Origin: Candidatus Multivoradales bacterium
GTDB taxonomy: Bacteria; Acidobacteriota; Thermoanaerobaculia; Multivoradales; JAHEKO01
Length of the DNA stretch: 64,000 bases
Direction: 5' to 3'
Assembly (NCBI GenBank): GCA_965224065.1
Contig: CBDCYF010000005.1
Location: 2,751,616-2,815,615 of the forward strand
The notes under the pieces were generated by a model. It saw nothing but the letters and a program-made list of their open reading frames with translations, did no database searches and was not told where the DNA came from. The stretch's first letter is position 1. Every line of letters begins with the position of its first letter. The position numbers and the translations under genes were made by a program. Shown piece after piece: positions 29,951 through 45,830 of this stretch.

Positions 29951-29965
29951 GGCCGGGGAAGAAAA

Positions 29966-31360: not shown

Positions 31361-31593
31361 GAACGCCTGAAGCGGCCGGCGCCCCTGCCGGCCAATCTCG
31401 GGCGGGGGCAAGCCCCGCCCCTACCTCCGGACAGTTTCCCCTTGAAGCGCCCGGCGCCCCTTCGGGCGGTTGGGCCGTTGTCCCAGCGGGCCTGCGGACC
31501 GTCGCCTCCTCCGGCCAATCTCGGGCGGGGGCTAGCCCCGCCCCTACCTTCGGACGGTTTCCCCCTGAAGCGGCCGGCGCCTCTGCCGGCCGT
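31361..31593. repeat. Composite REP-like repeat cluster in the aceF-lpdA intergenic space (type B hairpin, type A hairpin, then type A and type B again).
   Basis: Type B ctgaagcggccggcgcccctgccggcc at 31367-31393 and 31565-31591. Type A gggcgggggcaagccccgccc (8-bp stem GGGCGGGG/CCCCGCCC) at 31400-31420 and 31524-31544. The flanks of each copy are near-identical. Confidence 0.7.
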
Positions 31594-31616
31594 TTCCTGG
31601 CCTAAGGTTCTCGTCG

Positions 31617-33428
31617 ATGCCCGAGCTGCTCAAAGTCACCATCCCGGAGCTGGGCACCGACGAAAAAGTCGAAGTGGTCGAGGTCCTGGTCGCCGAGGGA
31701 GACCGGATCCAAAAAGACGACGGCCTGATCACGCTCGAGAGCGACAAGGCCTCGATGGACGTGCCGTCGCCGGCCGCCGGAGCGGTGCGCGAGCTCCGGG
31801 TCAAGGTCGGTGACCACGTCGGCGAAGGCGACCTGATCCTGGAGCTCGAGGTCGAGGCCGATGCCACGACCCGTTCTGTAGAAGCCGCTGGTGCTGCGGC
31901 CTCCCCCGGTTCCGGAGGGCCCACCGACCCTGTAGGGGCGGGGCTTGCCCCCGCCCGTGGGGCCACGGGGCTTGCCCCCGCCCGCGAGACGACGCCACCC
32001 CTGCCGTCGAACGCCGACCTCCACGCCGACGTCCTGGTGCTGGGCGCCGGTCCCGGGGGCTACACGGCCGCCTTCCGGGCCGCCGATCTGGGCAAGAAGG
32101 TCGTCCTGGTCGAGCGCTACCCGGTCCTCGGTGGCGTTTGTCTCAACGTCGGTTGTATCCCGTCCAAAGCACTGCTCCACGTCGCCCGGGTGATCTCCGA
32201 GGCGCGCGCGGCCGAGGAGCACGGTGTCTACTTCGGTGCTCCAAAGATCAGCCTTGAACAATTGCGTGCCTGGAAAACAAGTGTGGTGGAGCGTCTGACC
32301 AAGGGGCTCGCCGCGATGGCCGGCAAGCGCAAGGTCGAGATCCTCCAGGGGACCGGGCGCCTCTCCGGCCCAAAGACTCTCCAAGTCGAGACTTCAGACG
32401 GCGAGAAACTCGTGTCCTTCGACCAGGCGATCCTCGCCGCGGGATCGCGGTCGATCGAGATCCCGGGCTTTCCCTACGACGATCCTCGGGTCATGGATTC
32501 GACCGGGGCGCTCGAGCTGGCCGATGTTCCCGAGCGCTTGCTCTTGGTGGGTGGCGGCATCATTGGTCTCGAGATGGCCATGGTCTACGGCGAGCTGGGC
32601 TCAAAGCTCACGGTTGTCGAGCTGCTTGACGGTCTCGTCCCGGGATGCGATCGGGACTTGGTGCGTCCGCTCGAACGGAGGCTAAAAAAGGCCCTTGGCG
32701 CCGAGATTCACTTGAACACCAAGGTGACGGCGGTCGAGGCCGGCGAGGACGGCCTACGCGCCCGGCTCGAGGGGCCCAAGGCGCCCGAGTCGGCGGACTT
32801 CGACCGCGTGCTGGTGGCCGTGGGGCGTCGGCCCAACGGCGACCGCCTGGGCGTCGAGGCCGCCGGTGTTGCGCTCGACGAGCGCGGCTTTGTTCCCGTC
32901 GACCGCCAGATGCGCACCAACGTCCCCCATATCTTTGCGATTGGGGACCTGGTCGGCCAGCCGATGCTGGCGCACAAGGCGACCCACGAGGGGAAGGTCG
33001 CGGCGGAAGCCGTGGCTGGGGAGAAGAGTTTTTTCGACGCGCGAGTGATTCCTTCGGTGGCCTACACCGATCCCGAGATCGCCTGGGTGGGTTTGACCGA
33101 GACCGCGGCGGAACAGCAGGGTGTCGCCTACGAAAAGAGTGTCTTCCCCTGGTCGGCGAGCGGTCGCGCGCTTGGCATGGGGCGCACCGACGGCTCGACC
33201 AAGATCCTCTACGAACCGGAAACCGGCCGCATCCTGGGTGGCGGCATCGTCGGACCCGGTGCCGGCGACCTGATCGCAGAGCTGGCGCTCGCCATCGAGA
33301 TGGACGCCGAGGCGGGAGACCTGGCGCTCACGATCCATCCCCACCCGACGCTCTCCGAGACGCTGTCCCTCGCCGCCGAGGTCTTTGAAGGCACGGTCAC
33401 CGATCTCTACCTGCCGAAGAAAAAGTAG
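31617..33428 (+). CDS. lpdA: Dihydrolipoyl dehydrogenase E3 with an N-terminal lipoyl domain.
   Basis: N-terminal lipoyl domain (ESDKASMDVPS), then a linker that contains two type A hairpin repeats, then an FAD/NAD domain with redox-active CLNVGCIPSK and a C-terminal dimerisation HPHPTLSE. Confidence 0.85.
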   Translation: MPELLKVTIPELGTDEKVEVVEVLVAEGDRIQKDDGLITLESDKASMDVPSPAAGAVRELRVKVGDHVGEGDLILELEVEADATTRSVEAAGAAASPGSGGPTDPVGAGLAPARGATGLAPARETTPPLPSNADLHADVLVLGAGPGGYTAAFRAADLGKKVVLVERYPVLGGVCLNVGCIPSKALLHVARVISEARAAEEHGVYFGAPKISLEQLRAWKTSVVERLTKGLAAMAGKRKVEILQGTGRLSGPKTLQVETSDGEKLVSFDQAILAAGSRSIEIPGFPYDDPRVMDSTGALELADVPERLLLVGGGIIGLEMAMVYGELGSKLTVVELLDGLVPGCDRDLVRPLERRLKKALGAEIHLNTKVTAVEAGEDGLRARLEGPKAPESADFDRVLVAVGRRPNGDRLGVEAAGVALDERGFVPVDRQMRTNVPHIFAIGDLVGQPMLAHKATHEGKVAAEAVAGEKSFFDARVIPSVAYTDPEIAWVGLTETAAEQQGVAYEKSVFPWSASGRALGMGRTDGSTKILYEPETGRILGGGIVGPGAGDLIAELALAIEMDAEAGDLALTIHPHPTLSETLSLAAEVFEGTVTDLYLPKKK

Positions 33429-33453
33429 CCGAGCCGGCTGCCGGCAGCGTGAG

Positions 33454-33492
33454 TTGACGCGGTATCGTTGCCGTGTTAAACATTACATTAAC
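33454..33492 (+). promoter_or_regulatory. Candidate promoter (TTGACG-17-TAAACA) overlapping an AT-rich inverted repeat GTTAA-N8-TTAAC, upstream of the cytochrome operon.
   Basis: TTGACG at 33454-33459. The inverted repeat is at 33475-33492 and is the only AT-rich patch in this region. An AGGAGG RBS at 33545-33550 precedes GTG 33558. Confidence 0.3.
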
Positions 33493-33557
33493 TGCAGGAT
33501 CATGCCGGGGGCTGATCGAACCCGATCAAAGGGAGTGGCCGGTTAGGAGGGGTGGAC

Positions 33558-35345
33558 GTGAGAGATCCAAAAAGGGTATTTCTCTTGGCTCTGGCACTCG
33601 TCGCGGTGGGTGCGGTCCCCGCGACGCCCCAGGATCCAACAGCCGAGCCGGAGACTCCGCTCAGCGCCGACGAAGAGCACGAGAAGCTCTTTCTCGAGAA
33701 CCGTTTTCCATCCGCGGCCACCTGCGCCACGTGCCATCCGAGCCACTATCGGGAGTGGTCGGTGTCGCCCCACGCCTACGCCCAGATGAGCCCGGTGTTC
33801 AACGCCATGCACGGCACCGTCCTGAAGGTCACCAACGGTACCAACGGGGACTTTTGCATCCGGTGCCACACGCCGGTGGGGATGAACCTGGAAGAGCCCG
33901 AGTTCATGAGCAACATGGACCGGCATCCGACATCCCGCGAAGGCGTCACTTGCATCGTCTGCCACCGGCTCAACAAGGCCTACGGCAAGCTGAGCGGTCG
34001 GCTGGCGATCGTCGAGGGGGATCTGTTCGAGCCAGTTTTTGGCCCCTCGGGAAACGACGAGGTCGAACGGGTGATCCAGTCAAGCGACTACCGGGTGAAC
34101 CCCGAGCGCGGCAAGGCGGGGCGTGCCATCCACGGCCGGGCGGAGAAGTTCTTCCAGCTCACCACCTCGGGCTTTTGTGCCACCTGCCACGACGTCAACC
34201 TGGTCAACGGATTCCGGCTCGAGGAAGCCTTTAGCGAGTTCAAGACCTCGCCGGCGGCGCGGAACGGGGTCTCCTGTCAGGACTGCCACATGAGCACCGA
34301 GCCGGGGGTGGACTCCGGGTATGCCGAGGGTCCGGCGGCGGTAGTCGGACGCAGGCAGACCCAGAGCCGCAAGCTCACCGACCACATGTTTGTCGGTCCC
34401 GACTACTCGATCGTCCATCCGGGAATCTTTCCGCACAACACAAAGGCCTCGGAGATGGCCACGATCCGGCAATGGCTGACCTTTGACTACAGAGCCGGAT
34501 GGGGGACCGACGAGTTCGAGATCGATGTCCCCGAGAGCTACTCCTTCCCCGAGCACTGGCGCTCGGCCGACGATCGCTACGACGCGCGCGACGTCCTGGA
34601 GGAGAATCTCGAGCTGTTGCGAGAAGCCGAAGCCGCGCGTCTTCAGATTCTGCGCGCCGGGTACAAGCTGGGTGAGATATTGGTCGACAGGGCGGACAAA
34701 AAAAAGGGTCTCGAGTTCCGGGTGGAGGTCAAGAACGGCACCGACGGCCACGGGGTACCGACCGGTTTCGACGCCGAGCGTCTGGTCTTTCTGCAGGTGA
34801 CCGTGGCCGATCGCTCCAGCGAGGTGATTTTCCGTTCCGGCGACCTCGATCCGAACGGCGACGTGCGCGACAACCATTCGCTCTATGTCCACAACGGCGA
34901 GCTGCCGCTGGACAAACAACTCTTCAGCTTGCAGTCGCGGTTTGTCACCCGGATGATCCGGGGCGGCGAGCGCGAACAGGTCCTGGCGGTCAACTACTCA
35001 CCCGACCCGCTGCCGTTTCTTCGGCCTTCGACATCGTCGACCATCTTGACCGGACGACCGCGGGGAGCGCGCAAACACAAACAGAACATCGAGCCGCTCG
35101 GCAGGCGCTGGGCGCGCTACCGGGTGAAGCCCGAGGCGCTGACCGGCAACGGGCCGTACGTCGCGCGGATCCAGCTGATCGCCGGGATGGTGCCGGTCAA
35201 CCTGATCCACGAGATCAAGGGCGTTGGTTTCGACTACGGCATGTCCGCCCGCGAGGTGGCGGAGAAGGTGGTGGAAGGCCACCAAGTCGTGTGGGATCGG
35301 AAGCTCGAGATCGCCACAGAACCGCCACAAGTCGCTGAGCGATGA
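33558..35345 (+). CDS. Pentaheme c-type cytochrome, secreted.
   Basis: Five CXXCH motifs: CATCH, CIRCH, CIVCH, CATCH, CQDCH. Signal peptide RVFLLALALVAVGAVPATPQD. About 595 aa. The GTG start was chosen by RBS spacing. Confidence 0.7.
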   Translation: MRDPKRVFLLALALVAVGAVPATPQDPTAEPETPLSADEEHEKLFLENRFPSAATCATCHPSHYREWSVSPHAYAQMSPVFNAMHGTVLKVTNGTNGDFCIRCHTPVGMNLEEPEFMSNMDRHPTSREGVTCIVCHRLNKAYGKLSGRLAIVEGDLFEPVFGPSGNDEVERVIQSSDYRVNPERGKAGRAIHGRAEKFFQLTTSGFCATCHDVNLVNGFRLEEAFSEFKTSPAARNGVSCQDCHMSTEPGVDSGYAEGPAAVVGRRQTQSRKLTDHMFVGPDYSIVHPGIFPHNTKASEMATIRQWLTFDYRAGWGTDEFEIDVPESYSFPEHWRSADDRYDARDVLEENLELLREAEAARLQILRAGYKLGEILVDRADKKKGLEFRVEVKNGTDGHGVPTGFDAERLVFLQVTVADRSSEVIFRSGDLDPNGDVRDNHSLYVHNGELPLDKQLFSLQSRFVTRMIRGGEREQVLAVNYSPDPLPFLRPSTSSTILTGRPRGARKHKQNIEPLGRRWARYRVKPEALTGNGPYVARIQLIAGMVPVNLIHEIKGVGFDYGMSAREVAEKVVEGHQVVWDRKLEIATEPPQVAER

Positions 35346-36802
35346 GACAAGCGCCGCGGATCTTGCTGGTGTCGTGCCTGCTGGCGGCTGGGGTTGCCGG
35401 ACGGGCCACGGCCTGGCCGTGCCCCGCGGCCGCGGGGGACGAGAAGCCGGCCAAAGCGGACGACCCCGAATCCCGCCATCCGTCGGCCCATCATTCGAGC
35501 CGGTTGAGTGACGAGTACATCCCGCTCCAGCTCGAAGGCTTCCCCAAGCGGCCCAAGCTGCTCCTCGAGCTGGGCAACCCCTATCTCGGCACCGGCAACA
35601 TCAAACCCGGCTTCGAGCTGCCGACCGGCGCGGTCTGGCAGCCGACTCTCATTCTTTTTGGCACGCTCCGGACCGCGGTTCAGAGCTTCGAGGCCGGCGG
35701 TGCCCGGTTCAGCGAAGTCGCCGCGCGCCTCGACCTTTTTGCCAACCTCCAACTTTCGGGCACCGAGCGTCTGGTGGTGGGGTTCCGCAACCTGGATCGG
35801 GAAGGCCGCTTTACGAGCTACGTCATCGAGCCCGAACCGGCGGACGGCGACCGGTTTCGCGAAGAGCTCAACGCCGATATCCAGAGCCTCTACTTCGAAG
35901 GCGATTTTGGCGAGATCTTCCCCAAGCTCGACAAGGAGGACTTTGGCCGTAAGGACTACGGCTTTGCGATCGGGCGCCAGCCGCTGCTCTTTCAAGAGGG
36001 GATGCTGATCGATGATTCGATCGACGGCATCGGCATCACCCGCAACACGCTGCTGCCCAGGAACACGTCGAATTTTCGCGCCACGCTCTATCTGGGCTTC
36101 GAAAATGTCCACCGATCGAATTTCGAGGATGACGAAGCGGATCTGTTCGCGTTGTTGACGTCGACCGATTTTCGCGCCTCGACAGTCGACGCGGACCTGG
36201 CCGTGGTGACCGGATCCGATCGCCACGGCGACCAGGCGAACCTGGGCGTGAGCGCCGTCCAGCGCCTGGGCAAATACAACACGTCGTTTCGAGTGCTCGC
36301 GTCGAGCGCTCTGGATGAAGAGACCTTCTTCAGCACCGACGGCGTGCTGCTCTTTAGCGAGGTGTCCTGGACGCCGCACTACACGCACGATCTGGTCTAT
36401 GTCACGACGTTTGCGGCCCTCGACCGGTATTCGTCCGCCGCCCGCGGCCCGGCCACCGGCGGTCCTCTGGGTCGAGCGGGAATCAACTTCGCCGCCGTCG
36501 GTTTGGGTCGCTTTGGGGCCCCGCTGTCGAGCGTTGCCTGGGATGTGGCCGGTGGCGCGGTCGGGTACCAGAAGTTTCTCGGGCCCGAGAACCGGCGCCA
36601 GGTGCTCGCCGAGCTGGGGGTGAGATTGGGTCTTGCCGACTCCGTTGCCGACTCGGCGGCGGTGAGTGTGCGTTATCAGACCGCGGTGGGGCGGCGGCTG
36701 GTTTTTGGGGTCAGTGGCTTTGGCGCCCGGATCGAGAGCACGTCCGGAGCCTCCACCGACGACCGCTACGGGGGACGTTTCGAGGTCACGCTCAAGTTCT
36801 AG
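35342..36802 (+). CDS. Outer-membrane beta-barrel protein (porin-like; possibly alginate-export/AlgE-like family).
   Basis: Signal peptide MRQAPRILLVSCLLAAGVAG. Alternating amphipathic beta-strand pattern throughout. C-terminal ...RFEVTLKF ending in Phe, which is the OMP beta-signal. The ATGA overlap with the upstream cytochrome stop suggests coupling. Confidence 0.55.
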   Translation: MRQAPRILLVSCLLAAGVAGRATAWPCPAAAGDEKPAKADDPESRHPSAHHSSRLSDEYIPLQLEGFPKRPKLLLELGNPYLGTGNIKPGFELPTGAVWQPTLILFGTLRTAVQSFEAGGARFSEVAARLDLFANLQLSGTERLVVGFRNLDREGRFTSYVIEPEPADGDRFREELNADIQSLYFEGDFGEIFPKLDKEDFGRKDYGFAIGRQPLLFQEGMLIDDSIDGIGITRNTLLPRNTSNFRATLYLGFENVHRSNFEDDEADLFALLTSTDFRASTVDADLAVVTGSDRHGDQANLGVSAVQRLGKYNTSFRVLASSALDEETFFSTDGVLLFSEVSWTPHYTHDLVYVTTFAALDRYSSAARGPATGGPLGRAGINFAAVGLGRFGAPLSSVAWDVAGGAVGYQKFLGPENRRQVLAELGVRLGLADSVADSAAVSVRYQTAVGRRLVFGVSGFGARIESTSGASTDDRYGGRFEVTLKF

Positions 36803-36839
36803 CTCGCCGAGCGTTCGACGGCGCTTCCGACAGCTCGTG

Positions 36840-38963
36840 ATGCTGGTCGCGCCGTTGACTCTTGCTCACAGCGCGTATGCCCAGGGTACGCGCGATCTGC
36901 CCTTTCTCGAGCATTCACGGGTCGATCCGACCAAGGTTCTTACCGCCGAGGCTTGCGGCGAGTGCCACATCGCCGAATTCGAGGTTTGGGAAAAAACGCC
37001 CCACGCGACCGGCTTCAAGACGCTGCATCGCAAGCAGCAGGCGGAGACGATTGCGCGCAAGATGGGGTTTCGGTTGATCAAGCGCGACAGCCTCTGCTTT
37101 AGCTGTCACTACACACCGGTGGTCGATGACGACCGGATCCGGGTGGTCTCGGGGGTCTCGTGCGAGTCGTGCCACGGAGCGAGCGCCGATTGGATCGACG
37201 TCCACAATGACTATGGGGCCGGCCGGGACTATCGCAGCGAGCCCGCCGAGGCGCGCCGCGAGCGCGAGGAAAAAAGCCGCAGCGCCGGAATGCGCCGCCC
37301 TTCGGACCTCTACCCGGTGGTCGCCAACTGCTTCTCCTGCCACACGGTGCCGAGCGAGGAGCTGGTCAACGTGGGTGGGCACACCACCGGCAGCGGCGGG
37401 TTCGAGTTTGTCGAATGGTCCCAGGGGAAAATCCGGCACAACTATCTCGACGTCGTGCGGACCGGCAACCCCGGCCCCAACGCCACCCGGCCGATGGAGC
37501 GCCGCCGGGCGATGTATGTGGTCGGTCGCGCTCTCGATTTGGAATTCGGCCTGCGTGGCCTGGCCGTGGCCAAGGAAGACGGGGTCTACGCCAAGGCGAT
37601 GAGCCGGCGGGTGCGGAGCGCGCTCGCCGAGGTCCGCGCGATCGCTTCTGAAGCCGCGTTGCCCGACGTCGAAGAGATGGTCCGAACGGTCCAGAGCGTG
37701 CGGGTGGTGCCGCGAAACGAGGCGGAGCTGCTCGCGGCAGCGGAGAAGATCGGCGCCGCGACGCGCCGCTTCCTCGATCGTCACTCGACCCTCGACATGG
37801 CGGCGCTCGATCCCCTGATGACCGGAGGGGGCGGCGGGGAAGCCGCCGAAGACACGCTGGCAGCTGCCGGCGAGCCAGAGGGCCTTGCCGATGTAGGAGA
37901 CGCCGAGCCCGGCGCAGCAGGTCTGTCCGCCGGCACGGTGCGGACCGTTTCGGTAGCGGGCGGTCCCGGGCGGGGCCCGGCGTCCGCCGCCTCACCGGCG
38001 GCAACGGCCGGCCAGGGTGTGGTCGGGGAGTTCAAGCGTTCGATCCGCCCAAAGTCCAAGCACCGAACGCTTGGCCCCGGCAGTTGCAGTGGCTGCCACG
38101 GTCCGCAAAACGAATGGTGGTTTGGCCACGCGCACTACCGGTCGGCCGACCCGTTCTTCGACGGCGCCGCGGCAAATCTCCAGATCGCGCGTCTCTACGG
38201 TGTCAAGACATCCGAGATCACGCGGGGCAAGAACATCTGTATGGACTGCCACGGCACGGTGATCTCAGGCAAGGAGTCGCGCGATGTGCTCGACGGCGTG
38301 AGCTGCGAGAGCTGCCATGGGGCCGCCGCCGACTGGCTCGAGCCGCACAAGGACGAGACCGACAAACAGCTCGGCCGCCGCCGGCCGGGGCATCTGGCCG
38401 CCCTGCGGCGCGGCAAGCTGGATCTGGCAGACGCCGGAGCTCGTGCCGAGCGCTGCGCCGGGTGTCATTATGTGACCGACCGGCGGCTGCTGTCGGCGGG
38501 GCATCCGTCGGGCGCCGACTTCGACTTCGCGCGCGCCATGGCCGAGGTCCGTCACTGGCAGCGGCCGCTCGAGCCGGCCGTGCAGTTGGCCTCCGCTTAC
38601 ACGCGGGTCAAGAGCGCGCGCGGGCCGGTGCCCGATGTGCCCAGGGCGGTACTCGCGGCGGCCGGCAGCCGCGTCGAAGGAGGCTCGAAACGCGGCGCCG
38701 TCGCCACTCGCCGGGCCGTTTTTGCAACCGGCACTGCGCCGGGATCGTCGGGCGCTCCGATTCCGATCGCCCTGCTCGATCCGCCGGCGCCGCGACCGGC
38801 CGCCGCCGGATCCCGTTCCTCGAGTCAGGGCCCGCCGGTCGATCTGCCGCCGTTTCCGGAAATCACGGAGTCGACTCCGATCGAGGACGTCTTGCTGATG
38901 CTTCGCGAGCGCCTGGCCCGGTTGTACCGGGCCGTGGCGCCGGGAGGGAGCGGCACCCCATGA
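36840..38963 (+). CDS. Octaheme c-type cytochrome built from two related tetraheme modules joined by an Ala/Gly/Pro-rich linker.
   Basis: Eight CXXCH motifs: CGECH, CFSCH, CESCH, CFSCH in the first module and CSGCH, CMDCH, CESCH, CAGCH in the second. Both modules contain VSCESCHGA(S/A)ADW. The start is ATG 36840 (or GTG 36837) and is uncertain. Confidence 0.7.
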   Translation: MLVAPLTLAHSAYAQGTRDLPFLEHSRVDPTKVLTAEACGECHIAEFEVWEKTPHATGFKTLHRKQQAETIARKMGFRLIKRDSLCFSCHYTPVVDDDRIRVVSGVSCESCHGASADWIDVHNDYGAGRDYRSEPAEARREREEKSRSAGMRRPSDLYPVVANCFSCHTVPSEELVNVGGHTTGSGGFEFVEWSQGKIRHNYLDVVRTGNPGPNATRPMERRRAMYVVGRALDLEFGLRGLAVAKEDGVYAKAMSRRVRSALAEVRAIASEAALPDVEEMVRTVQSVRVVPRNEAELLAAAEKIGAATRRFLDRHSTLDMAALDPLMTGGGGGEAAEDTLAAAGEPEGLADVGDAEPGAAGLSAGTVRTVSVAGGPGRGPASAASPAATAGQGVVGEFKRSIRPKSKHRTLGPGSCSGCHGPQNEWWFGHAHYRSADPFFDGAAANLQIARLYGVKTSEITRGKNICMDCHGTVISGKESRDVLDGVSCESCHGAAADWLEPHKDETDKQLGRRRPGHLAALRRGKLDLADAGARAERCAGCHYVTDRRLLSAGHPSGADFDFARAMAEVRHWQRPLEPAVQLASAYTRVKSARGPVPDVPRAVLAAAGSRVEGGSKRGAVATRRAVFATGTAPGSSGAPIPIALLDPPAPRPAAAGSRSSSQGPPVDLPPFPEITESTPIEDVLLMLRERLARLYRAVAPGGSGTP

Positions 38964-40606
38964 GTGAGACCGGCTCGGCGGCGCTCGACAAGACCACGCT
39001 CCGGCGGGTCGAGCAGTATCGGGACCGCTGGACTTCGGAAGAAACCGACTCCGGCCTGCTCGAGATCTCGGACCGTCTGAGCGCCGCGGCGTTGCGCGAG
39101 TTCGAGATCTTCTCTGACTACGACGACAAATTCCTCGAGAAGATCAGCCCCGACGTCTCGCTGGCGACCTGGCGCGAGGGCGCGGTTCTGTTCGAGGAGG
39201 GCGCCTACATCGACCTGGCGTTCTTCGTGGTCGGCGGAGAGGTCGAGGTCTACCTCCGAGGGGTCGAGGGTGCGAGCCAGGGTCCGCGACCGATCTTCGA
39301 TCTGTCGCGCACGATCGTCGGCGCCGCGGAAGGAACCGATTCCTCGCGCGTGACCGAGCCGGGCACGGTGTTGATGCGCCAAGCGACTCGAACCGCATCG
39401 ACACAGATCACCCTCCTGACCACTATGGATTTCGATCTGCCACGCGACGCCGTCACGCGGTTGGGAGAGGGCGAGCTCTTTGGCGAGATCGGCTCGATGA
39501 GCGGTTGGCCGCAGTCGGTGACGGCCCGCACCGCCACCGAGTGCCGTCTGCTGCAGATCCGGGTGCCGGCACTGCGGTTGATGAAGCGCAAATCCAAGGC
39601 GCTCAAGCAACGGCTCGACGCCCTGTACCGGGAGCGCTCGCTGTCCTCCCAGCTCAAGAGCACCCCGGTCTTTGCGGACTGCAACGACATCTTTATCGAG
39701 GCGCTCAAGGAGAAGGTCGAGTTGGTCTCCTGCGATCCGGGCGAAGTGGTGGCCCGCGAGGGAGAGGTGGCCGACGCGTTTTACGTGCTGCGTTCGGGGT
39801 TTCTCAAGCTCTCGCAACGATTCGAACAAGGCGAGATTGTGGTGTCCTATCTCTCCAAGGGGATGAGCCTTGGCGAGATCGAGTTGCTGATCGACGGGGT
39901 GGACGAGTGGCAGACCACGGTGACGTCGGTCGAGTACGCTGAGCTCATCAAGTTGCCCAAGGAGATCTTCGAGCAACTGATCGGCAGCTACCCGGAGATC
40001 AAGGAACGGCTGTGGCGCTCCGCCACCGACCGGGTGCGAGAGGCGGGCTTCAGCCGCCGCAACATCGGCCACGCCGAGTTCACCGACGTCGCTCTCGAGA
40101 CCGGACTGGTGCAGGGCAACAGCATCCTGGCGATCGACCTGGCGAGCTGCACACGATGCGATGACTGCGTGCGCGCCTGCTCGGCGACCCACGGCGGACG
40201 GTCGCGTTTTGTCCGCGAGGGCGACAAGGTCGAGAACCTGCTGATCGCCAAGTCCTGCTACCACTGCCGTGACCCGGTTTGTCTCGTCGGGTGTCCGACG
40301 GGCGCGATCCATCGGGCCGGCGTCGGCGACGTAGTGGCCGTGGATGAGGAGATTTGTATCGGCTGTTCGAGCTGTTCGCGCAACTGCCCCTACGACGCCA
40401 TCGTGATGCACGAGATGGGTGAGAAATGGCCCGACGACATGGTGCCCCAAGGTCTGCGGGGCAAGGACCGCAGCGTGGCGAGCAAGTGCGATCTTTGCTA
40501 CGACACCGGGCACGGCCCCGCGTGTGTGAGCAATTGCCCGCAAGGCTGTGCCTACCGGGTCGGCTCGCTCGAGGAGTTTCAAGAGCTGCTGGCGGGGTGG
40601 AGATAG
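38960..40606 (+). CDS. Cytoplasmic iron-sulfur protein with two cyclic-nucleotide-binding (CAP-effector) domains fused to a four-cluster [4Fe-4S] ferredoxin (NrfC/DmsB/PsrB-like).
   Basis: Two cNMP-binding beta-roll domains (GELFGEIG...SVTARTAT and ...GMSLGEIELL...). Four Cys clusters: CTRCDDCVRAC, CYHCRDPVCLVGCP, CIGCSSCSRNCP, CDLCYDTGHGPACVSNCP. No signal or Tat motif. The ATGA overlap with the octaheme stop suggests coupling. Confidence 0.7.
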   Translation: MSETGSAALDKTTLRRVEQYRDRWTSEETDSGLLEISDRLSAAALREFEIFSDYDDKFLEKISPDVSLATWREGAVLFEEGAYIDLAFFVVGGEVEVYLRGVEGASQGPRPIFDLSRTIVGAAEGTDSSRVTEPGTVLMRQATRTASTQITLLTTMDFDLPRDAVTRLGEGELFGEIGSMSGWPQSVTARTATECRLLQIRVPALRLMKRKSKALKQRLDALYRERSLSSQLKSTPVFADCNDIFIEALKEKVELVSCDPGEVVAREGEVADAFYVLRSGFLKLSQRFEQGEIVVSYLSKGMSLGEIELLIDGVDEWQTTVTSVEYAELIKLPKEIFEQLIGSYPEIKERLWRSATDRVREAGFSRRNIGHAEFTDVALETGLVQGNSILAIDLASCTRCDDCVRACSATHGGRSRFVREGDKVENLLIAKSCYHCRDPVCLVGCPTGAIHRAGVGDVVAVDEEICIGCSSCSRNCPYDAIVMHEMGEKWPDDMVPQGLRGKDRSVASKCDLCYDTGHGPACVSNCPQGCAYRVGSLEEFQELLAGWR

Positions 40607-40610
40607 GGCG

Positions 40611-41459
40611 ATGCCGGAAGCCGCGGGCAAGCTGCATCTTCGCGGGGGACGCCACCGATCGCGCGGGCTCTACGTCTTTGTGCTGGCCATTGCCGCCGCC
40701 CTGGTGGCGCTGACCGCAAACCTGGCTTTTTCCGAGCTCCGTCCGGGCAACGCCTGGGGGCTGACTTACGGCACTCTCGCAGCGTTGCTCCTGGTGGCGG
40801 CCGCGGCCCTAGGGGTCCGCCGGCGCGCTATGAAGACGTCTTCACGTCTGAACGCCGGCAGCGCTCGCCCGTGGCTCGCCTTCCATCTCTACGGCAGCTT
40901 GCTTTTTCTGTTGATCCTGCTGATGCACAGCGGGTTTCGTGTTCCGGAGGGCCGCATCACCTGGTGGCTCTGGGTCGCCAGCTTGTGGATGGTGGCGACC
41001 GGAGTCGTCGGCCGTTTGCTGCAAAAGTGGCTGCCACGCGTCCTGGCGTCGGGTCTTTCGACCGAGGTGCTCTACGAGCGGATTCCCGAGCTGGTCGAAG
41101 AGATCGCCGGCCGGGCCAAGGCCGTGGCCGAGACCTCCGGCGACGCGATCCGCGCACTCTACGATCGAGTGCTGGCGCCGGCACTGGGCAGTCCACGGCG
41201 ACGGTGGATCTACTTAGTCGACGTCACCGGCGGGATCCAGGCTCGGCTCAAAGAGTTTGAATACCTGCGCGCTCTACTCCCGGAAGGCGAGCAAAAAAAG
41301 CTGGACGAGCTCGAGCGGCTCTATCGAACCAAGCTCGAGATCGACGCGCACTACACGCTGCAACTGCCCCTTCGCTGGTGGCTCTACCTCCACCTGCCGG
41401 TCACCCCGGTGGTGCTGGCGCTGTTGCTGCTTCACCTCTACACGGTGCTTTTCTATTGA
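40611..41459 (+). CDS. Integral membrane protein, putative di-heme b-type transmembrane electron carrier (cytochrome b / ferric-reductase-domain-like His pattern).
   Basis: Five predicted TM helices. TM3 (WLAFHLYGSLLFLLILLMHSG) and TM5 (WWLYLHLPVTPVVLALLLLHLY) each carry two His 14 positions apart (His-x13-His), the spacing used for bis-His heme b ligation in cytochrome b and NOX/FRD proteins. The function is inferred. Confidence 0.45.
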   Translation: MPEAAGKLHLRGGRHRSRGLYVFVLAIAAALVALTANLAFSELRPGNAWGLTYGTLAALLLVAAAALGVRRRAMKTSSRLNAGSARPWLAFHLYGSLLFLLILLMHSGFRVPEGRITWWLWVASLWMVATGVVGRLLQKWLPRVLASGLSTEVLYERIPELVEEIAGRAKAVAETSGDAIRALYDRVLAPALGSPRRRWIYLVDVTGGIQARLKEFEYLRALLPEGEQKKLDELERLYRTKLEIDAHYTLQLPLRWWLYLHLPVTPVVLALLLLHLYTVLFY

Positions 41460-43045
41460 GCAAAAAGAAGAGCGGCAAGGGCGCTTTTGGCGATCTCGAC
41501 CTGCCGGTGGCGACGGCCTATCCGAGTCAGTTGTCACGCCGCCGGATGCTCCTGCTGGGAGTGGTCGCGGTGGCCGTGATCGCGGCGTTGATCGCCTATG
41601 TTCAGTTCACGGGCAGCAGCCGTTGGGCCTCGAAGGGTCCGCTGTCCTCGGCGCACGCGGCGTTCGAGTGCGGCAGTTGTCATGCGTCGGACGCTCGTAC
41701 GGTGACCGATGAGAAGTGCTCGTCTTGCCACGAGAAGTTCGGCGACGAGCTGGGTGTCTACACGTTTGCCTCGCACTACTTGTACAAGTCCGACGACTTC
41801 CGTCGCCTGGTCCCCTCGTCGGATGAGAAGCCTTGCTCGGCCTGCCATCTCGAACACGAGGGGCGTCACGCCGACATCACCCGAGTCGGAGACGCGCGTT
41901 GCGAGACCTGCCACTTTGCGTCTTTTGACAAAGACCATCCGGAGTTCGATTTTGCCGCCGAAGAGATCCCGGATCCCGCCGCGCTCGATTTCGCCCACGT
42001 CCACCACGTACGCGAGGTCATGAAGCGTCAGAAGCTCGACGACATCGAGGCCTCGTGTCTCTATTGCCACAACGCTCAGCCCGACGGGCGTGCGTTCCAG
42101 CCGACCTCCTTCGACCGGCATTGCGACGCCTGTCATCTCACCGCGGCGGTATCCACGCCCGGTCTGCCGATTGCGGGCGCTGCGGCGGGTGTCGAGACCC
42201 TGGAGCAGATCGCCGAGCGGGGCGGCCCGGGCACACGCTGGGTCTATTTCTCGAACCCCAACGAGTTCCGGGTTCGAGGCTCCGCGGTCGTCAAGACGCC
42301 GCTACACCACAAAGACCCCTGGGTACTGGACAACCTGCGGCGTTTGCGCGGGATGCTCTATCCTGACGCCGGCCTCGCCGACCTATTGCTCGCGTCGCCC
42401 GACGCCGAGCCGCATGAGATCCGCGCGCTCTATCAAGAGGCGATCGCCGCCCTCGAGGAGCAGGTCGTTGGGTTGCGCGGTCGCCCCGAGCCCGAGATCC
42501 AAGCGGAGCTCGGGCGGATCACCGATCTGCTCGAACGGCTGAAGCAGCAGGTGGCGGACCCGTTTGCGCCCCTCGACGAGACGCGCTTCGCCCTGGCGCT
42601 CGACAGAAAAGCCGATGAGCTCGGCTCGGAAACACAGGGCGAGATCGAGGGCTTGATCGAGGAGTTGACCCGGCCCTGTCTCCAGTGCCACGAGCTGCGC
42701 GCGGCGACGATCGCGCGAGTCCAAAAGGACCAGCGCGTGTTGAGACGCGCAAAGTTCGACCACCGAGCCCACATCATCCAGGCGCGTTGTCTGGATTGCC
42801 ACCGCGGAATCCCCATCGCGGAGGGGCTCGAGTCGGAAACGCCGACCACGCCGACAGACTCTGAGCTAGACCATTCGGCGATCCAGAATCTACCGGGGAT
42901 CGAGACTTGCCGCACCTGTCACCGGTCGCAGCAGGCCGCCGACCGCTGCGTGACCTGTCACGACTTCCACGCCGACAAGAGCCGGCGATCCGAGCTGTTG
43001 CTGTATTTGGGAGAGGACGTACCGGAAGAGGAGGCGAGGTCGTGA
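41456..43045 (+). CDS. Membrane-anchored decaheme c-type cytochrome.
   Basis: Ten CXXCH motifs: CGSCH, CSSCH, CSACH, CETCH, CLYCH, CDACH, CLQCH, CLDCH, CRTCH, CVTCH. The N-terminal TM anchor is MLLLGVVAVAVIAALIAYV. The proposed TTG start at 41456 overlaps the upstream stop. ATG 41546 is an alternative. Confidence 0.7.
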   Translation: MSKKKSGKGAFGDLDLPVATAYPSQLSRRRMLLLGVVAVAVIAALIAYVQFTGSSRWASKGPLSSAHAAFECGSCHASDARTVTDEKCSSCHEKFGDELGVYTFASHYLYKSDDFRRLVPSSDEKPCSACHLEHEGRHADITRVGDARCETCHFASFDKDHPEFDFAAEEIPDPAALDFAHVHHVREVMKRQKLDDIEASCLYCHNAQPDGRAFQPTSFDRHCDACHLTAAVSTPGLPIAGAAAGVETLEQIAERGGPGTRWVYFSNPNEFRVRGSAVVKTPLHHKDPWVLDNLRRLRGMLYPDAGLADLLLASPDAEPHEIRALYQEAIAALEEQVVGLRGRPEPEIQAELGRITDLLERLKQQVADPFAPLDETRFALALDRKADELGSETQGEIEGLIEELTRPCLQCHELRAATIARVQKDQRVLRRAKFDHRAHIIQARCLDCHRGIPIAEGLESETPTTPTDSELDHSAIQNLPGIETCRTCHRSQQAADRCVTCHDFHADKSRRSELLLYLGEDVPEEEARS

Positions 43046-43506
43046 AGGCCAAGCTGATCTCACAGTGGGGATCGACCCGCGGCACCGAGCACGGGATCGC
43101 CGGCGAAGCCACCATCGGGCGCGCCGAAGACAATTCGATTTGCGTCGGTGCGCGACCGGTGTCGTCGCACCATGCGCGGGTCTTTTTCAACGGCGACCGC
43201 GGGCTCTATTACGTCGAAGACCTGGGAAGCCTCAATGGCACCGAGCTCGACGGAATGCGGATCACCCGCGCCGAGCCCCTCGGGCGGCTCCATGTTCTCC
43301 GCTTTGGTGGGGTCGCCGAGTTCCTGTTTGTCGAGCTGGATCGCACCCCGGCCTTTGACGGCTCCGAGCCATCACCCACCAAGGTCCCGTCGGCGGCCGA
43401 CGCCACGGATCAAACTCATGTCGATGCCAAGCTCCCCGAGCTGCCCGAGGCCCTGCGCACTGACACGGCGCCACCGCAACCCCCAGAAGAAGACGGCGGC
43501 GAGTGA
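43042..43506 (+). CDS. FHA domain-containing protein (phospho-threonine binding).
   Basis: 154 aa. FHA signature TIGRAEDNSICVGARPVSSHHARVF...GLYYVEDLGSLNGTELDG. A GTGA overlap joins it to the decaheme stop. Confidence 0.65.
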   Translation: MKAKLISQWGSTRGTEHGIAGEATIGRAEDNSICVGARPVSSHHARVFFNGDRGLYYVEDLGSLNGTELDGMRITRAEPLGRLHVLRFGGVAEFLFVELDRTPAFDGSEPSPTKVPSAADATDQTHVDAKLPELPEALRTDTAPPQPPEEDGGE

Positions 43507-43518
43507 AAGAGGGCTGAC

Positions 43519-45759
43519 GTGGCGGCCCTGGACATCCTGATCGTCGGTGGCGGACCCGCCGGCACGGCGGTGGCCTTTCGCGCCCGCGAGCTGGGTCTCG
43601 ATGCCCTGGTCATCGACTACGACGATCTGATGAAACGCATCCGCGACTATTCCAAGGACAAGCTCATCCTGCCGGCCTTTGGTGGTGGCGACAAGGTGTG
43701 CTTTCCCAGGGGTGGCGATCTCGTCGAGTGTCTTCAGTTTCAACCGATCGACAAGGACGACATGTGCGCCGAGTGGAAGGCGCTTTACGAGAAGCACGAC
43801 ATCGCCAGGCGTGTTGGACTTGAATTGACCGGGCTCGAGCCCTTGGAGGATCGCTATCGCGCCGTGACGTGGGATCACAACCGGCGCACCGAGGAGTGCT
43901 TTGAGGCCCGCCACGTTGTGCTGGCGATCGGTCGCGGGGTGCCGCGGCGCTTCGACATCCCGGGAAATACCGATGGCATCGCCTATCGGCTGGCGGACCC
44001 CGAGGACTACGTCGGCAGCCCGGCGTGCGTGGTGGGTGGCGGCACCTCGGCCGCCGAAGCGGTCATCGCGATCTCCAACGCCAAGTCGCAGGCCGGCGAC
44101 GAGAGCTCGGTCTACTGGTCCTACCGCGGCGACAAGATGCCGCGTGTCTCAAAGTCGCTGGCCGGCGAGTTCTTTGCCGCCTATGTCGGCAACGGCAACA
44201 TTCGCTACTTCCGCAAGAGTGAGCCGGCTGCGATTTCCGTCGGCGACGACCGGCGCGAATACCTCGCCGTCCGGGTCGACCGCCACCAAATGGCCGGCCG
44301 GCCCAACGAGCTGACACTCCTCGAGTTCCCAAAGGAGATGTGCCTTGCCTGTATCGGGGAGGATATTCCCGAAGCCCTGCTCAACTCGTTTGGAATTCAT
44401 CTTGCGACCGGCGGTCCCAGGGGGCGCAAGCGGATGGTCGTCAATCGCTGCCTCGAGACCTGTCGCCCCAACGTCTATCTGATCGGCGACCTGCTGTCCC
44501 AGGCCTATTTCGAGACCGAGGACTTCGATGCCGACCCGGCCGGTTTTCGTGAGATCAAACATCGCGGCAACATCAAATCCGCCCTGCGCGACGGGGTGCG
44601 GGTGGCGCAGATCATCGAGCAGCGGCTGGCCGGCAAGGAGGATGTCGTAGTCGACATCGAAGACGCCGAGGATACGGGCTCCGGTGTCTCGATTGCCGCG
44701 GTCTCCGCGCCTCTGGGATCGAGCGGGCCGCCGCGGGAAAGTCTCGGTGAGGGTCGCTCCGAGACCGAGGCCGAGGCGTTCGTGATTCGGGTGCTGCCGA
44801 CCGGTGTCGAAGAAGACGAGTACCCGGTTCGCTCGCACGGGATCACCACGATCGGGAGCGGGGACTGCGACCTGTCGTTTCCGAGCGATTCGATGCTTGC
44901 GCCGTGCCACGGCTCGGTCTCCCATGGAGAAGAGGGCTACTTTCTGCGCGATGACGGCAGCTCGACCGGGGTGTTTCTCAAGATCGCGCCGGCGCGCAAG
45001 GTCGAGCTCTCGAGCGGCGACCTGCTCCGCGTGGGCCGGCAGTTTCTGGTGCTCCAGCGAGAGAACGGTGTGGCGTCGCTCGTCCACTACTCGGCCGATG
45101 GCGAGGAGCGGGGGCAGCTCGCGCTCGAGCCCGGGAGAACCTGGGTGCTCGGGCGCGGCAACCCCGACCGGGTGCTCGACGCCGGGGACAAGACCCTGTC
45201 GCGGCGGCACCTTGCGGTCTCGTTTGAAAAAGGGGTCGTTCGAGTCAAGGACCTCAAAAGCGTCAACGGGACGTTTCTTCGCGTCCGCCCGGCGCGCCGG
45301 CTCGAACACGGCGACCAGATCCGGCTCGGACAGCAACTCTTGACCTTCAGCCTACGGGGCGAGGCCGCGCTGGACCCGGGAATCGAATCGCGGTCGGCGT
45401 CGGTTGGCGGCGCTGTCGAAGGCGGTACCGAGGCGACACCGGCGCCCGGCCCCGGACAGGCGAGTGTGGTCTTTCGCGGCTCGGGATCTGATGCTCCCAT
45501 CCCGGTGGCGGCGGGTCAGAGCCTGTGCGAGGCGGCCGAGGCCGCCGGAGTCGAGATCACCGCCGAATGCCATTCCGGGATTTGCGGCAGCGATCCGATC
45601 CGGATCGTCTCGGGCGCCGAGTACCTCGCCGGGGACGCTGCCGACCAGGAGCGCGAGACCCTCGAGGAACTCTGCGAGGTCGAGCCGGGCTCGTGCCGGC
45701 TGGCCTGCATGACACGGATCAACGGCCCGGTCGTCGTCGAGCTCCTGAGTTCGGACTGA
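43519..45759 (+). CDS. Multidomain redox protein: FAD/NAD(P)-binding pyridine-nucleotide oxidoreductase domain, then two FHA domains, then a C-terminal Cys-rich ferredoxin-like ([2Fe-2S]?) domain.
   Basis: N-terminal ILIVGGGPAGTAVA (FAD) and VVGGGTSAAEAV (NAD(P)) Rossmann motifs. FHA-1 is ITTIGSGDCDLSF...GYFLRDDGSSTGVFL. FHA-2 is TWVLGRGNPDRVLD...SRRHLAVSF...DLKSVNGTFL. The C-terminus carries CHSGICGSD...CRLAC. 746 aa. Confidence 0.65.
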   Translation: MAALDILIVGGGPAGTAVAFRARELGLDALVIDYDDLMKRIRDYSKDKLILPAFGGGDKVCFPRGGDLVECLQFQPIDKDDMCAEWKALYEKHDIARRVGLELTGLEPLEDRYRAVTWDHNRRTEECFEARHVVLAIGRGVPRRFDIPGNTDGIAYRLADPEDYVGSPACVVGGGTSAAEAVIAISNAKSQAGDESSVYWSYRGDKMPRVSKSLAGEFFAAYVGNGNIRYFRKSEPAAISVGDDRREYLAVRVDRHQMAGRPNELTLLEFPKEMCLACIGEDIPEALLNSFGIHLATGGPRGRKRMVVNRCLETCRPNVYLIGDLLSQAYFETEDFDADPAGFREIKHRGNIKSALRDGVRVAQIIEQRLAGKEDVVVDIEDAEDTGSGVSIAAVSAPLGSSGPPRESLGEGRSETEAEAFVIRVLPTGVEEDEYPVRSHGITTIGSGDCDLSFPSDSMLAPCHGSVSHGEEGYFLRDDGSSTGVFLKIAPARKVELSSGDLLRVGRQFLVLQRENGVASLVHYSADGEERGQLALEPGRTWVLGRGNPDRVLDAGDKTLSRRHLAVSFEKGVVRVKDLKSVNGTFLRVRPARRLEHGDQIRLGQQLLTFSLRGEAALDPGIESRSASVGGAVEGGTEATPAPGPGQASVVFRGSGSDAPIPVAAGQSLCEAAEAAGVEITAECHSGICGSDPIRIVSGAEYLAGDAADQERETLEELCEVEPGSCRLACMTRINGPVVVELLSSD

Positions 45760-45760
45760 A

Positions 45761-45830
45761 GCGGCCGGCGCCCCTGCCGGTCGTTGGGGCCGGTGTCCCG
45801 CCGGCCGACCCTACCCGGCCGGAAAATCGA
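45761..45830. repeat. REP-like hairpin element (type B) between convergent genes. Probably a bidirectional terminator.
   Basis: tgaagcggccggcgcccctgccgg..., the same unit as at 31367 and inside aceF. Followed by further GC palindromes (ccggccgg). Confidence 0.6.

Follow-up and report, generated by a model that had tools for sequence, protein, structure and literature searches.

A ptd operon in an Acidobacteriota genome encodes a candidate NAD(P)H-to-periplasm electron path with signalling-type domains in its redox subunits

Within a 64,000-nt stretch of contig CBDCYF010000005.1 from Candidatus Multivoradales bacterium (Acidobacteriota), here called the window, eight open reading frames (ORFs) follow one another on the forward strand at 33552-45759, with junctions that overlap or nearly abut. 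The window has a G+C content of ~66% throughout, and its six-frame translation amounts to 128,000 residues. The eight products are three multiheme cytochromes c, an outer-membrane barrel, a cytoplasmic protein with cyclic nucleotide-binding (CNB) folds and iron-sulfur cluster motifs, a membrane protein, a small FHA-domain protein and a flavoenzyme, and we identify the set with the ptdABCDEFG operon (penta/tetra/deca-heme) named by Elbon, Stewart & Glass in a 2023-24 preprint (bioRxiv 10.1101/2023.11.21.568154). The names of the preprint are used below; the gene order in the window is ptdA-B-D-E-F-G-(FHA gene)-C, numbered g1 to g8 (Table 1).

That eight genes lie on one strand with five overlapping or abutting junctions, as claimed in an earlier note made from this DNA, was evident on reading the sequence: ATGA at 35342 and at 38960, a 4-nt gap at 40607-40610, TTGA at 41456 and GTGA at 43042. 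The gap between g7 and g8 is 12 nt and contains a ribosome-binding site for g8, and a GGAGGGG ribosome-binding site precedes the GTG start of ptdA at 33552. The start of g3 is ambiguous, since past the stop codon of g2 only a GTG (36837) and an ATG (36840) are available, both of which give a very short signal peptide. The overlapping start and stop codons, together with the synteny described below, point to a single module. The earlier note let the region begin at 33454, and a TTGACG hexamer is indeed found there; it lies inside the spacer between lpdA and ptdA and is no gene start. Nor did it stand out as a promoter, as a consensus scan for promoters and terminators gave nothing over the shuffled background in the region, including 33454 and the sequence 3' of g8. 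An Rfam scan returned no RNA element at gathering thresholds.

Table 1. Positions of the ptd genes and of other features within the window, with the evidence behind each assignment. CNB, cyclic nucleotide-binding; TM, transmembrane; AF2, AlphaFold2; PDH, pyruvate dehydrogenase.
Feature	Position	Strand	Evidence
g1 = PtdA, secreted pentaheme cytochrome c	33552-35345	+	CXXCH, Pfam, PDB profile
g2 = PtdB, outer-membrane beta-barrel with signal peptide	35342-36802	+	structure model
g3 = PtdD, periplasmic octaheme cytochrome c	36837/36840-38963	+	CXXCH, Pfam
g4 = PtdE, cytoplasmic tandem CNB-fold and four-[4Fe-4S] ferredoxin	38960-40606	+	Pfam, NCBIfam, PDB profile
g5 = PtdF, five-TM inner-membrane protein	40611-41459	+	alignment, AF2 model
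g6 = PtdG, decaheme cytochrome c with N-terminal TM anchor	41456-43045	+	CXXCH, Pfam
g7, small cytoplasmic FHA-domain protein	43042-43506	+	Pfam FHA, E=2.6e-13
g8 = PtdC, FAD/NAD(P)H oxidoreductase with two FHA domains and Fer2	43519-45759	+	Pfam, NCBIfam, PDB
Conserved N-terminal segment of PtdB (residues 53-101)	35498-35644		
Ser/Thr-rich insertion of PtdE (residues ~100-158)	39388-39564		
Ser/Thr protein kinase, convergent, with TonB_C-like C-terminal domain	45811-47814	-	Pkinase E=4e-46, TonB_C
Intergenic spacer lpdA (PDH E3)/ptdA, 123 bp	33429-33551	+	sequence reading
PDH E1	27299-29950	+	
PDH E2	29966-31360	+	
PDH E3 with N-terminal lipoyl domain	31617-33428	+	
Second large Ser/Thr kinase, 1027 aa, TPR repeats	11306-14389	-	
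Di-heme cytochrome c peroxidase/MauG-family gene	58030-59199	+	CCP_MauG E=2e-46

When each gene product was searched against Pfam and NCBIfam, the domain inventory given in the earlier note proved correct; g2 matched nothing in either database and was recognized as a barrel from a structure model. The 23 c-type hemes counted there are not spurious. CXXCH motifs number 5 in g1, 8 in g3 and 10 in g6, so that the frames of the three cytochromes hold 23 of the 25 CXXCH motifs in the six-frame translation of the whole window, far beyond chance, and the set in g6 is conserved, with all ten motifs retained in 67 of 75 homologues. The two other motifs of the window belong to a gene of the di-heme cytochrome c peroxidase/MauG family.

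In PtdA, the five motifs (residues 58-246) follow a hydrophobic N-terminal segment (6-27) and precede a conserved C-terminal domain of ~350 residues with a GHxVPTG motif. The protein matches Pfam Cytochrome_C554, and a profile of its homologues, run against the PDB, found the pentaheme cytochrome c552 of Thermochromatium tepidum (5ze8, E=6.6e-17) with both the heme and the C-terminal beta domain covered. The likeness to c552 thus extends to both domains and includes the GH..PTG motif, whereas PtdA is ~160 residues longer and no ptd-type gene context has been reported for c552. The c552 family also contains Geobacter ExtKL and GSU2801 (PMC11976967). Identity among PtdA proteins of different phyla is 64-77%, the non-heme domain included. 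PtdD consists of two c554-like tetraheme modules with a low-complexity linker between them (Pfam Cytochrome_C554 twice, plus Cytochrome_C7). Matches to g3 were full-length octahemes in 29 loci and covered the C-terminal tetraheme half only in 28; judged from these alignments, PtdD of the window is a duplicated variant of the tetraheme protein, and its C-terminal module is the one kept in the tetraheme-only relatives. PtdG carries a transmembrane (TM) segment at residues 26-55, its anchor in the inner membrane, and matches Pfam Cytochrom_c3_2 / CIII; a search of the PDB found no sequence relative.

The cytoplasmic protein PtdE combines two Pfam cNMP_binding domains with Fer4 families. It has four complete Cys4 motifs, and all 16 Cys are invariant among 20 homologues. 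Neither a signal peptide nor a TM segment was predicted. Against the PDB, its profile found HycB3 (E=1e-20), HycB4, HycB of formate hydrogenlyase (FHL) and NrfC/PsrB (4e-13), as well as the regulatory CNB tandems of PKA and PKG, while the NCBIfam match to DmsB (E=1.7e-17) fell under the equivalog cut-off. The nearest solved relatives are accordingly the cytoplasmic electron-wire subunits HycB3/HycB4 of hydrogen-dependent CO2 reductase and HycB of formate hydrogenlyase, and both this similarity and the four CxxCxxCxxxC(P)-type motifs identify the Fe-S part as a four-cluster ferredoxin of the HycB/HydN/DmsB/NrfC/PsrB type. The CNB domains are degenerate. In the first, the Arg of the canonical FGE...PR[ST]A cassette is replaced (FGEIG..GWPQSVTA, with Q185 invariant in the 20 homologues), and the second likewise has no phosphate-binding Arg; PRTAT is retained in a distant homologue in which PtdE and PtdF are fused (P0387). 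The CNB fold of PtdE is certain from its sequence and the binding of cyclic nucleotides is not; with the phosphate-binding Arg replaced in both domains, the cyclic-nucleotide sensing proposed in the earlier note is not established. The first CNB domain is interrupted at residues ~100-158 by a Ser/Thr-rich insertion that varies in sequence and length (40-70 residues) and ends before a conserved ITFLSxMDFDLP motif; as pure conjecture, this insertion might be a site of phosphorylation or of FHA docking.

For PtdC, Pfam gave Pyr_redox_2 (E=1.9e-17), two FHA domains and Fer2, NCBIfam gave a YpdA-like match, and the PDB relatives were TrxR, YpdA/Bdr and TrxR-type FNR. The Fer2 domain has a conserved C-x4-C-G-S-D...C, i.e., three Cys and an Asp that replaces the third Cys of plant-type ferredoxins. 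The FHA signature GR...SxxH...NG is present in g7 (GR, SSHH, NGT) and in the second FHA domain of PtdC (GR, SRRH, NGT); the first FHA domain of PtdC is degenerate. The FHA domains probably have their partner in the Ser/Thr kinase encoded convergently beyond ptdC. A second large Ser/Thr kinase, with TPR repeats, is encoded ~20 kb upstream of the operon, and the genome seems rich in eukaryote-like kinases.

In PtdF, four His residues, H92 and H106 in TM3 and H261 and H275 in TM5, form two H-x13-H pairs that are invariant in 27 homologues from several phyla. According to the positive-inside rule and an AlphaFold2 (AF2) model with a predicted local distance difference test score (pLDDT) of 75.5, both His-bearing helices run from the cytoplasm to the periplasm. 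Being parallel, they place H92 and H261, and likewise H106 and H275, at matching depths, which is the geometry expected for two stacked b hemes, and the four residues are predicted to hold two such hemes. A helical domain between residues ~142 and 255 is cytoplasmic in the model, with pLDDT >90 for about 160-250. The family is large (2717 cluster representatives at 50% identity, E<=1e-3). Its Pfam matches were weak and all below threshold: 15 of the 27 homologues matched DUF4405 (best 2e-4), 15 matched Ni_hydr_CYTB (best 2e-3) and one matched Ferric_reduct (PF01794, E=0.1). DUF4405 proteins have been shown to bind heme b (PMC11334425). The spacing of the His pairs is that of the bis-His NOX/FRE/MsrQ proteins, whereas neither the sequence (PF01794) nor the six-TM FRD fold of that group was recovered, and no solved structure resembling the model was found, NOX and STEAP included.

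The outer-membrane protein PtdB ends in ...TLKF. Its model, built from 31 homologues with a pLDDT of 71, shows a beta-barrel behind a signal peptide, and the modelled fold points to an OprD/MOMP/AlgE-type channel of ~18 strands that is not MtrB-like; it is not the large 26-strand barrel of the MtrB/PioB type that is able to sheathe a decaheme cytochrome. Behind the signal peptide lies a strongly conserved segment of ~50 residues, which is unmodelled or predicted to be disordered (pLDDT <50) and in which S53, L62, P68, R70, P71, E76, G78, P80, L82, G83, G85, G90, L93, P94, W99, Q100 and P101 are invariant. This segment could serve to plug the barrel or to dock PtdA. Scores for the Mtr families were far below their cut-offs in the operon, with ~29-32 bits against 192 for TIGR03508 and 15.6 against 209 for TIGR03507 (MtrA/DmsE and OmcA/MtrC). 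The earlier note had seen the logic of Mtr-type porin-cytochrome systems in this locus, which is not upheld by an ~18-strand barrel unlike MtrB and by an operon with no MtrA/DmsE, OmcA/MtrC or CymA/NapC member above threshold.

The preprint (bioRxiv 10.1101/2023.11.21.568154) describes PtdA as a pentaheme cytochrome with a beta-sandwich C-terminal domain, homologous to T. tepidum c552, PtdB as a porin beside PtdA, PtdC as an FAD/NAD(P) oxidoreductase, PtdD as a periplasmic tetraheme protein, PtdE as a protein with CNB and 4Fe-4S domains, PtdF as a ferric-reductase-like membrane protein and PtdG as a decaheme cytochrome. The products in the window agree with these descriptions for PtdA, PtdB, PtdC, PtdD, PtdE and PtdG; the position of PtdF is taken by the membrane protein with two H-x13-H pairs, whose family gave only the single weak Ferric_reduct match noted above. 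In Table S7 of the preprint, the Sulfidibacter corallicola genome CP071793 is listed with PtdA (QTD51412), PtdB (QTD51413), PtdD (QTD51414), PtdE (QTD51415), PtdF (QTD51416), PtdG (QTD51417) and PtdC (QTD51419), with one unnamed gene between PtdG and PtdC, and an Acidobacteriota metagenome-assembled genome (MAG) is also in the order A-B-D-E-F-G-x-C. Our own search returned a single locus for S. corallicola (L041, NZ_CP071793), which we equated with that of Table S7 by genome and gene order; it has g1 to g8 in the order of the window at 41-71% identity, and its FHA gene fills the unnamed slot. By sequence, then, the window operon is a further ptd member in an arrangement already tabulated for Acidobacteriota, and the system is not undescribed, as the earlier note had supposed.

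Hosts given in the preprint are marine Alpha- and Gammaproteobacteria, Nitrospirales/Nitrospina, Planctomycetes and a few others, and its authors suggest a porin-cytochrome or a nitrogen-cycle role (bioRxiv 10.1101/2023.11.21.568154). Transcripts of ptdA and ptdB have been recorded at several hundred fragments per kilobase per million (FPKM) in ocean metatranscriptomes. Our literature search found no later paper using the ptd names and nothing combining FHA, cNMP, 4Fe-4S and multiheme components, and the supplements to the species description of S. corallicola contain no expression data for its ptd genes. Relative to the preprint's description, PtdD of the window is a duplicated octaheme and PtdE has four cluster motifs, not two; the FHA identity of gene x, the two FHA domains and Fer2 of PtdC, the recurrent Ser/Thr kinase and the optional status of PtdA/PtdB are missing from that description, and Bacteroidota, Ignavibacteria/Chlorobi, KSB1, Calditrichaceae and Myxococcota extend the host range. 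Apparently new are the conserved FHA gene and the kinase as parts of the system, the domain make-up of PtdC, the four clusters and degenerate CNB cassettes of PtdE, the fusions of PtdE with PtdF, the invariant His residues of PtdF and its affinity to DUF4405 and HydC-type proteins, the optional status and channel-type fold of PtdAB and a much wider host range.

Conservation of the gene set was examined by a scan with the g5 alignment, one genome per species, which gave 128 confirmed loci; neighbourhood counts refer to the best 80 of the 128, in which the window proteins were located by tblastn, and are restricted for each gene to loci whose flank was long enough. These loci come from more than eight phyla and include Acidobacteriota (Thermoanaerobaculia, Holophagae, Acanthopleuribacteraceae), Bacteroidota (Rhodothermales, Cytophagia, Chitinophagales), Ignavibacteria/Chlorobi, KSB1, Calditrichaceae, Myxococcota, Nitrospirota and Chromatiales. 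PtdG was the most constant neighbour of PtdF, g6 following g5 in 71 of 72 loci, and g7 (64/70) and g8 (51/61) were likewise found after g5. On the other side, g4 preceded g5 in 61 of 73 loci and g3 in 56 of 68, while g1 and g2 were found there in 17 of 49 and 18 of 53. All eight genes stood in the order of the window in 15 of the 43 fully flanked loci, and another 16 had g3 to g8, which defines a core of PtdD-E-F-G-FHA-C with the pentaheme and barrel pair as an optional addition. PtdA and PtdB always co-occur, in about one third of loci, and a search begun from g2 homologues led again into such clusters. The closest locus, in an Acidobacteriota MAG, retains six genes, five of them at 74-82% identity and the FHA gene g7 at 54%. 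The co-conservation expected of a single module is decisively borne out by this synteny across 80 loci.

Fusions and locus variants give further information on the parts. PtdE and PtdF are fused into a single ORF in 6 of 65 loci, with PtdE at the N-terminus of PtdF, and more independent fusions were found (P0241, P0281/L081, P0387 and L083/L084), which argues that the two proteins are in contact and that the N-terminus of g5 is cytoplasmic. A downstream Ser/Thr kinase was found in 24 of the 48 loci with enough flank. Close Acidobacteriota relatives have it in the convergent orientation of the window, at 46-65% identity, and loci of the Bacteroidota/Ignavibacteria type have it ~0.8 kb past g8, on the strand of the operon. 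A minimal variant in MAGs labelled KSB1 or 'Deferribacteres' (L016, L038, L051, L076) consists of a tetraheme protein, a PtdE-PtdF fusion and a decaheme protein, with neither the FHA gene nor PtdC, and in three of these four loci (L016, L038, L051) the kinase directly follows the decaheme gene. Two Bacteroidota MAGs (L012 and L029) have the gene set intact in the permuted order g3-g6-g4-g5-g7-g8. In loci without an upstream PtdE (g5-g6-FHA type), a protein of ~550 residues with an HbpS-like domain (heme-degrading/heme-binding) is encoded downstream (L005, 13541-15235; L013, 16378-18027). In the window, a complete pyruvate dehydrogenase (PDH) set directly precedes the operon on the same strand (27299-33428); a link to these genes was considered and rejected, as the E3 query matched in none of the 80 related loci.

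Taken together, the components suggest that electrons from NAD(P)H may be exported to the periplasm or envelope under regulation and without the use of quinones, a reading to which we give about an even chance. NAD(P)H would reduce the FAD of PtdC, and electrons would then pass to the [2Fe-2S]-type Fer2 domain of the same protein. The four [4Fe-4S] clusters of PtdE would carry them through the cytoplasm to the cytoplasmic face of PtdF, whose two predicted b hemes, the inner on H92 and H261 and the outer on H106 and H275, would span the inner membrane and so bypass the quinone pool. In the periplasm, the membrane-anchored decaheme PtdG and the soluble tetra- or octaheme PtdD would accept the electrons. 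In loci that have PtdA and PtdB, the pentaheme protein would act as the terminal redox protein beside the PtdB channel, and PtdB would more likely admit or release a small substrate than house a cytochrome. Searches of the operon against Pfam and NCBIfam found no quinone module of the NrfD, NapC/CymA/NirT, CbcL or ImcH type, the NapC/NirT matches to g1 being sub-threshold. Of the path drawn in the earlier note, the stretch from the cytoplasm to the periplasm is the natural reading of the flavin, Fe-S, di-heme b and multiheme parts and is backed by the PtdE-PtdF fusions; the direction of flow and any extracellular acceptor are matters of inference. The same applies more widely, and from the sequence we infer cofactor occupancy, all contacts other than that of PtdE with PtdF, flow direction, donor, acceptor and regulation.

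The membrane potential favours an outward movement of electrons across the inner membrane and is dissipated by it; such a flow would be wasteful if unregulated. In this system, export would bring periplasmic hemes of low potential within reach of NAD(P)H as reductant, and the wastefulness of an ungated flow would be a reason for so much built-in control, in which the neighbouring Ser/Thr kinase, the three FHA domains and the CNB-fold domains of PtdE would gate either assembly or flux.

Several points weigh against this reading. The direction of electron flow is not fixed by the sequence, and the Tmc, Hmc and Dsr complexes of sulfate reducers, whose architecture is similar, carry electrons inward. 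The membrane part of PtdF is modelled at pLDDT 60-80 and has no solved structural relative, and its weak likeness (Ni_hydr_CYTB) is to quinone-reactive cytochromes b of the HydC/FdnI type, which would allow for a quinone site. The Fer2 domain of PtdC has an Asp in place of the third Cys. PtdC itself is absent from about one in six loci, which, together with the minimal KSB1-type variant, means that NAD(P)H acting through PtdC cannot be the universal donor. In the model, the PtdB barrel appears too small for a multiheme cytochrome, and a route for electrons across the outer membrane is not evident. The authors of the preprint, moreover, call the function of ptd 'completely unknown' (bioRxiv 10.1101/2023.11.21.568154).

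Flow in the opposite direction would make the operon a counterpart of Tmc, Hmc or DsrMKJOP, with low-potential periplasmic or extracellular donors delivering electrons to PtdA, PtdD and PtdG and from there through PtdF to PtdE and PtdC, and finally to NAD(P)+ or a disulfide. The architecture shared with those complexes (periplasmic multiheme c, di-heme b and cytoplasmic Fe-S protein) speaks for this, as do weak NCBIfam matches of PtdE to DsrO and HmcB and of PtdG to HmcA, the reversibility of TrxR-like flavoenzymes and FNRs, and the presence of ptd genes, according to the preprint, in the nitrite oxidisers Nitrospirales and Nitrospina, which need reverse electron flow. We nevertheless consider it unlikely. 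Electrons would have to move against the membrane potential, and reducing NAD(P)+ with most environmental donors would be an uphill reaction as well. None of the loci examined had an operon-linked hydrogenase or formate dehydrogenase, S. corallicola is one example of the aerobes and denitrifiers among the hosts, and heavy gating better suits a wasteful outward leak than an energy-gaining uptake. The source of electrons could also differ, if PtdF and PtdG together formed a quinol:cytochrome c oxidoreductase like Geobacter CbcL, fed by the quinone pool, with PtdE, PtdC and the FHA proteins as a cytoplasmic module that is regulatory or auxiliary (e.g., redox-sensing) and not the principal input of electrons. 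PtdF and PtdG are the tightest pair in the synteny data (71/72 loci), 15 of 27 PtdF homologues weakly match the quinone-reactive HydC/FdnI family Ni_hydr_CYTB, PtdC is dispensable in some lineages, and both PtdE and PtdC are rich in signalling-type domains. Those matches are all below threshold, however, and no quinone-site motif was identified in PtdF; a HycB-type four-cluster wire with 16 invariant Cys suits conduction and not sensing, and it is fused directly to PtdF in several lineages. We regard a quinol oxidoreductase as quite improbable.

A further alternative concerns the terminal step only and is compatible with NAD(P)H-driven export across the inner membrane. It holds that there is no trans-outer-membrane conduit and that PtdA is a periplasmic enzyme acting on a soluble substrate (e.g., an N-oxide, a sulfur or selenium oxyanion or a chelated metal), for which PtdB is the specific entry channel. 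ExtKL, to which PtdA is related, has been linked to selenite and tellurite reduction. The conservation of PtdA across phyla, which includes its non-heme domain, is unusual for an electron carrier; PtdA and PtdB always occur together and as an option; the preprint places PtdA in the same COG as NrfA (bioRxiv 10.1101/2023.11.21.568154); and ExtKL is tied in the literature to the porin-like ExtI (PMC11976967). All five motifs of PtdA are nevertheless CXXCH, and no catalytic-site signature was identified; no enzymatic function has been assigned to 5ze8, its solved relative; and the conserved 50-residue N-terminal segment of PtdB could dock or thread a cytochrome. Compared with an Mtr-like sheath, an enzyme supplied through a channel is the better fit to the 18-strand fold of PtdB and to a PtdA conserved to so unusual a degree, while the enzyme hypothesis as a whole is a possible one that we hold to be somewhat unlikely. 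That the operon is primarily a redox-signalling device, in which small fluxes inform the CNB domains, FHA domains and kinase of redox conditions in the periplasm or outside the cell, seems very improbable. It would account for the unusual density of signalling-type domains in redox subunits and for the kinase as a frequent neighbour, but 23 c hemes, two b hemes, five Fe-S clusters and a flavin far exceed known redox sensors, transcripts of ptdA and ptdB reach several hundred FPKM in ocean metatranscriptomes, and no DNA-binding or other output domain was found in the operon with Pfam and NCBIfam.

The value of the window is confirmatory: it adds a member from the Acidobacteriota and a sharper parts list, and no new kind of system. 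The ptd system as such is widespread, from marine Alphaproteobacteria to Acidobacteriota, Bacteroidota and KSB1, and it is transcribed in the ocean. If NAD(P)H electrons are indeed exported past the quinone pool, redox chemistry in the periplasm or outside the cell (e.g., transformations of metals, nitrogen, sulfur or selenium or the production of reactive oxygen) would have a new route, and the system would be a rare respiratory-type chain under phospho-threonine control. Sulfidibacter corallicola, Roseibium aggregatum and Tistlia consotensis are cultured hosts in which genetics is feasible.

Compared with known systems, the operon resembles Mtr, Omb-Oma-Omc and Ext of Shewanella and Geobacter in that genes for multiheme cytochromes are clustered with one for an outer-membrane barrel, and PtdA falls in the pentaheme family of ExtKL, which adjoins the porin-like ExtI. 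It differs from them in the ~18 strands of its barrel, in an electron input that appears to be cytoplasmic and quinone-independent, and in the absence of the barrel module from most related loci. With Tmc, Hmc and DsrMKJOP it shares the combination of periplasmic multiheme c, di-heme b and cytoplasmic Fe-S protein as a transmembrane wire that is quinone-independent or quinone-optional. In contrast to those complexes, the cytoplasmic subunit is a HycB-type four-cluster ferredoxin with CNB domains and not an HdrD-like CCG protein, PtdF belongs to an unclassified family with no match to NarI or HdrE, a dedicated NAD(P)H flavoenzyme is present, and electrons likely flow the opposite way.

The likeness to NADPH oxidases (NOX) and ferric reductases, to MsrQ-Fre and to DUF4405 proteins lies in two predicted b hemes, stacked on the His pairs of two helices and fed by a cytoplasmic NAD(P)H flavoprotein; NOX activity is also controlled by phosphorylation or ligands, to which the control of ptd can be likened. 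PtdF differs from NOX and ferric reductases in having five TM segments and a 110-residue cytoplasmic helical insert, and the flavin module is a separate TrxR-like protein with a four-cluster Fe-S wire interposed. Electrons would pass from NAD(P)H through FAD/2Fe-2S, four 4Fe-4S clusters and two b hemes to more than 14 c hemes. We tentatively propose, while rating the proposal as rather doubtful, that Ptd is a multi-subunit bacterial counterpart of NADPH oxidase-type machines: a quinone-independent exporter, present in at least 10 phyla and built on a PtdF family without a Pfam model or solved relative, whose flux might be switched on demand through Ser/Thr phosphorylation, with three FHA domains as its readers, and through a ligand of the degenerate CNB domains.

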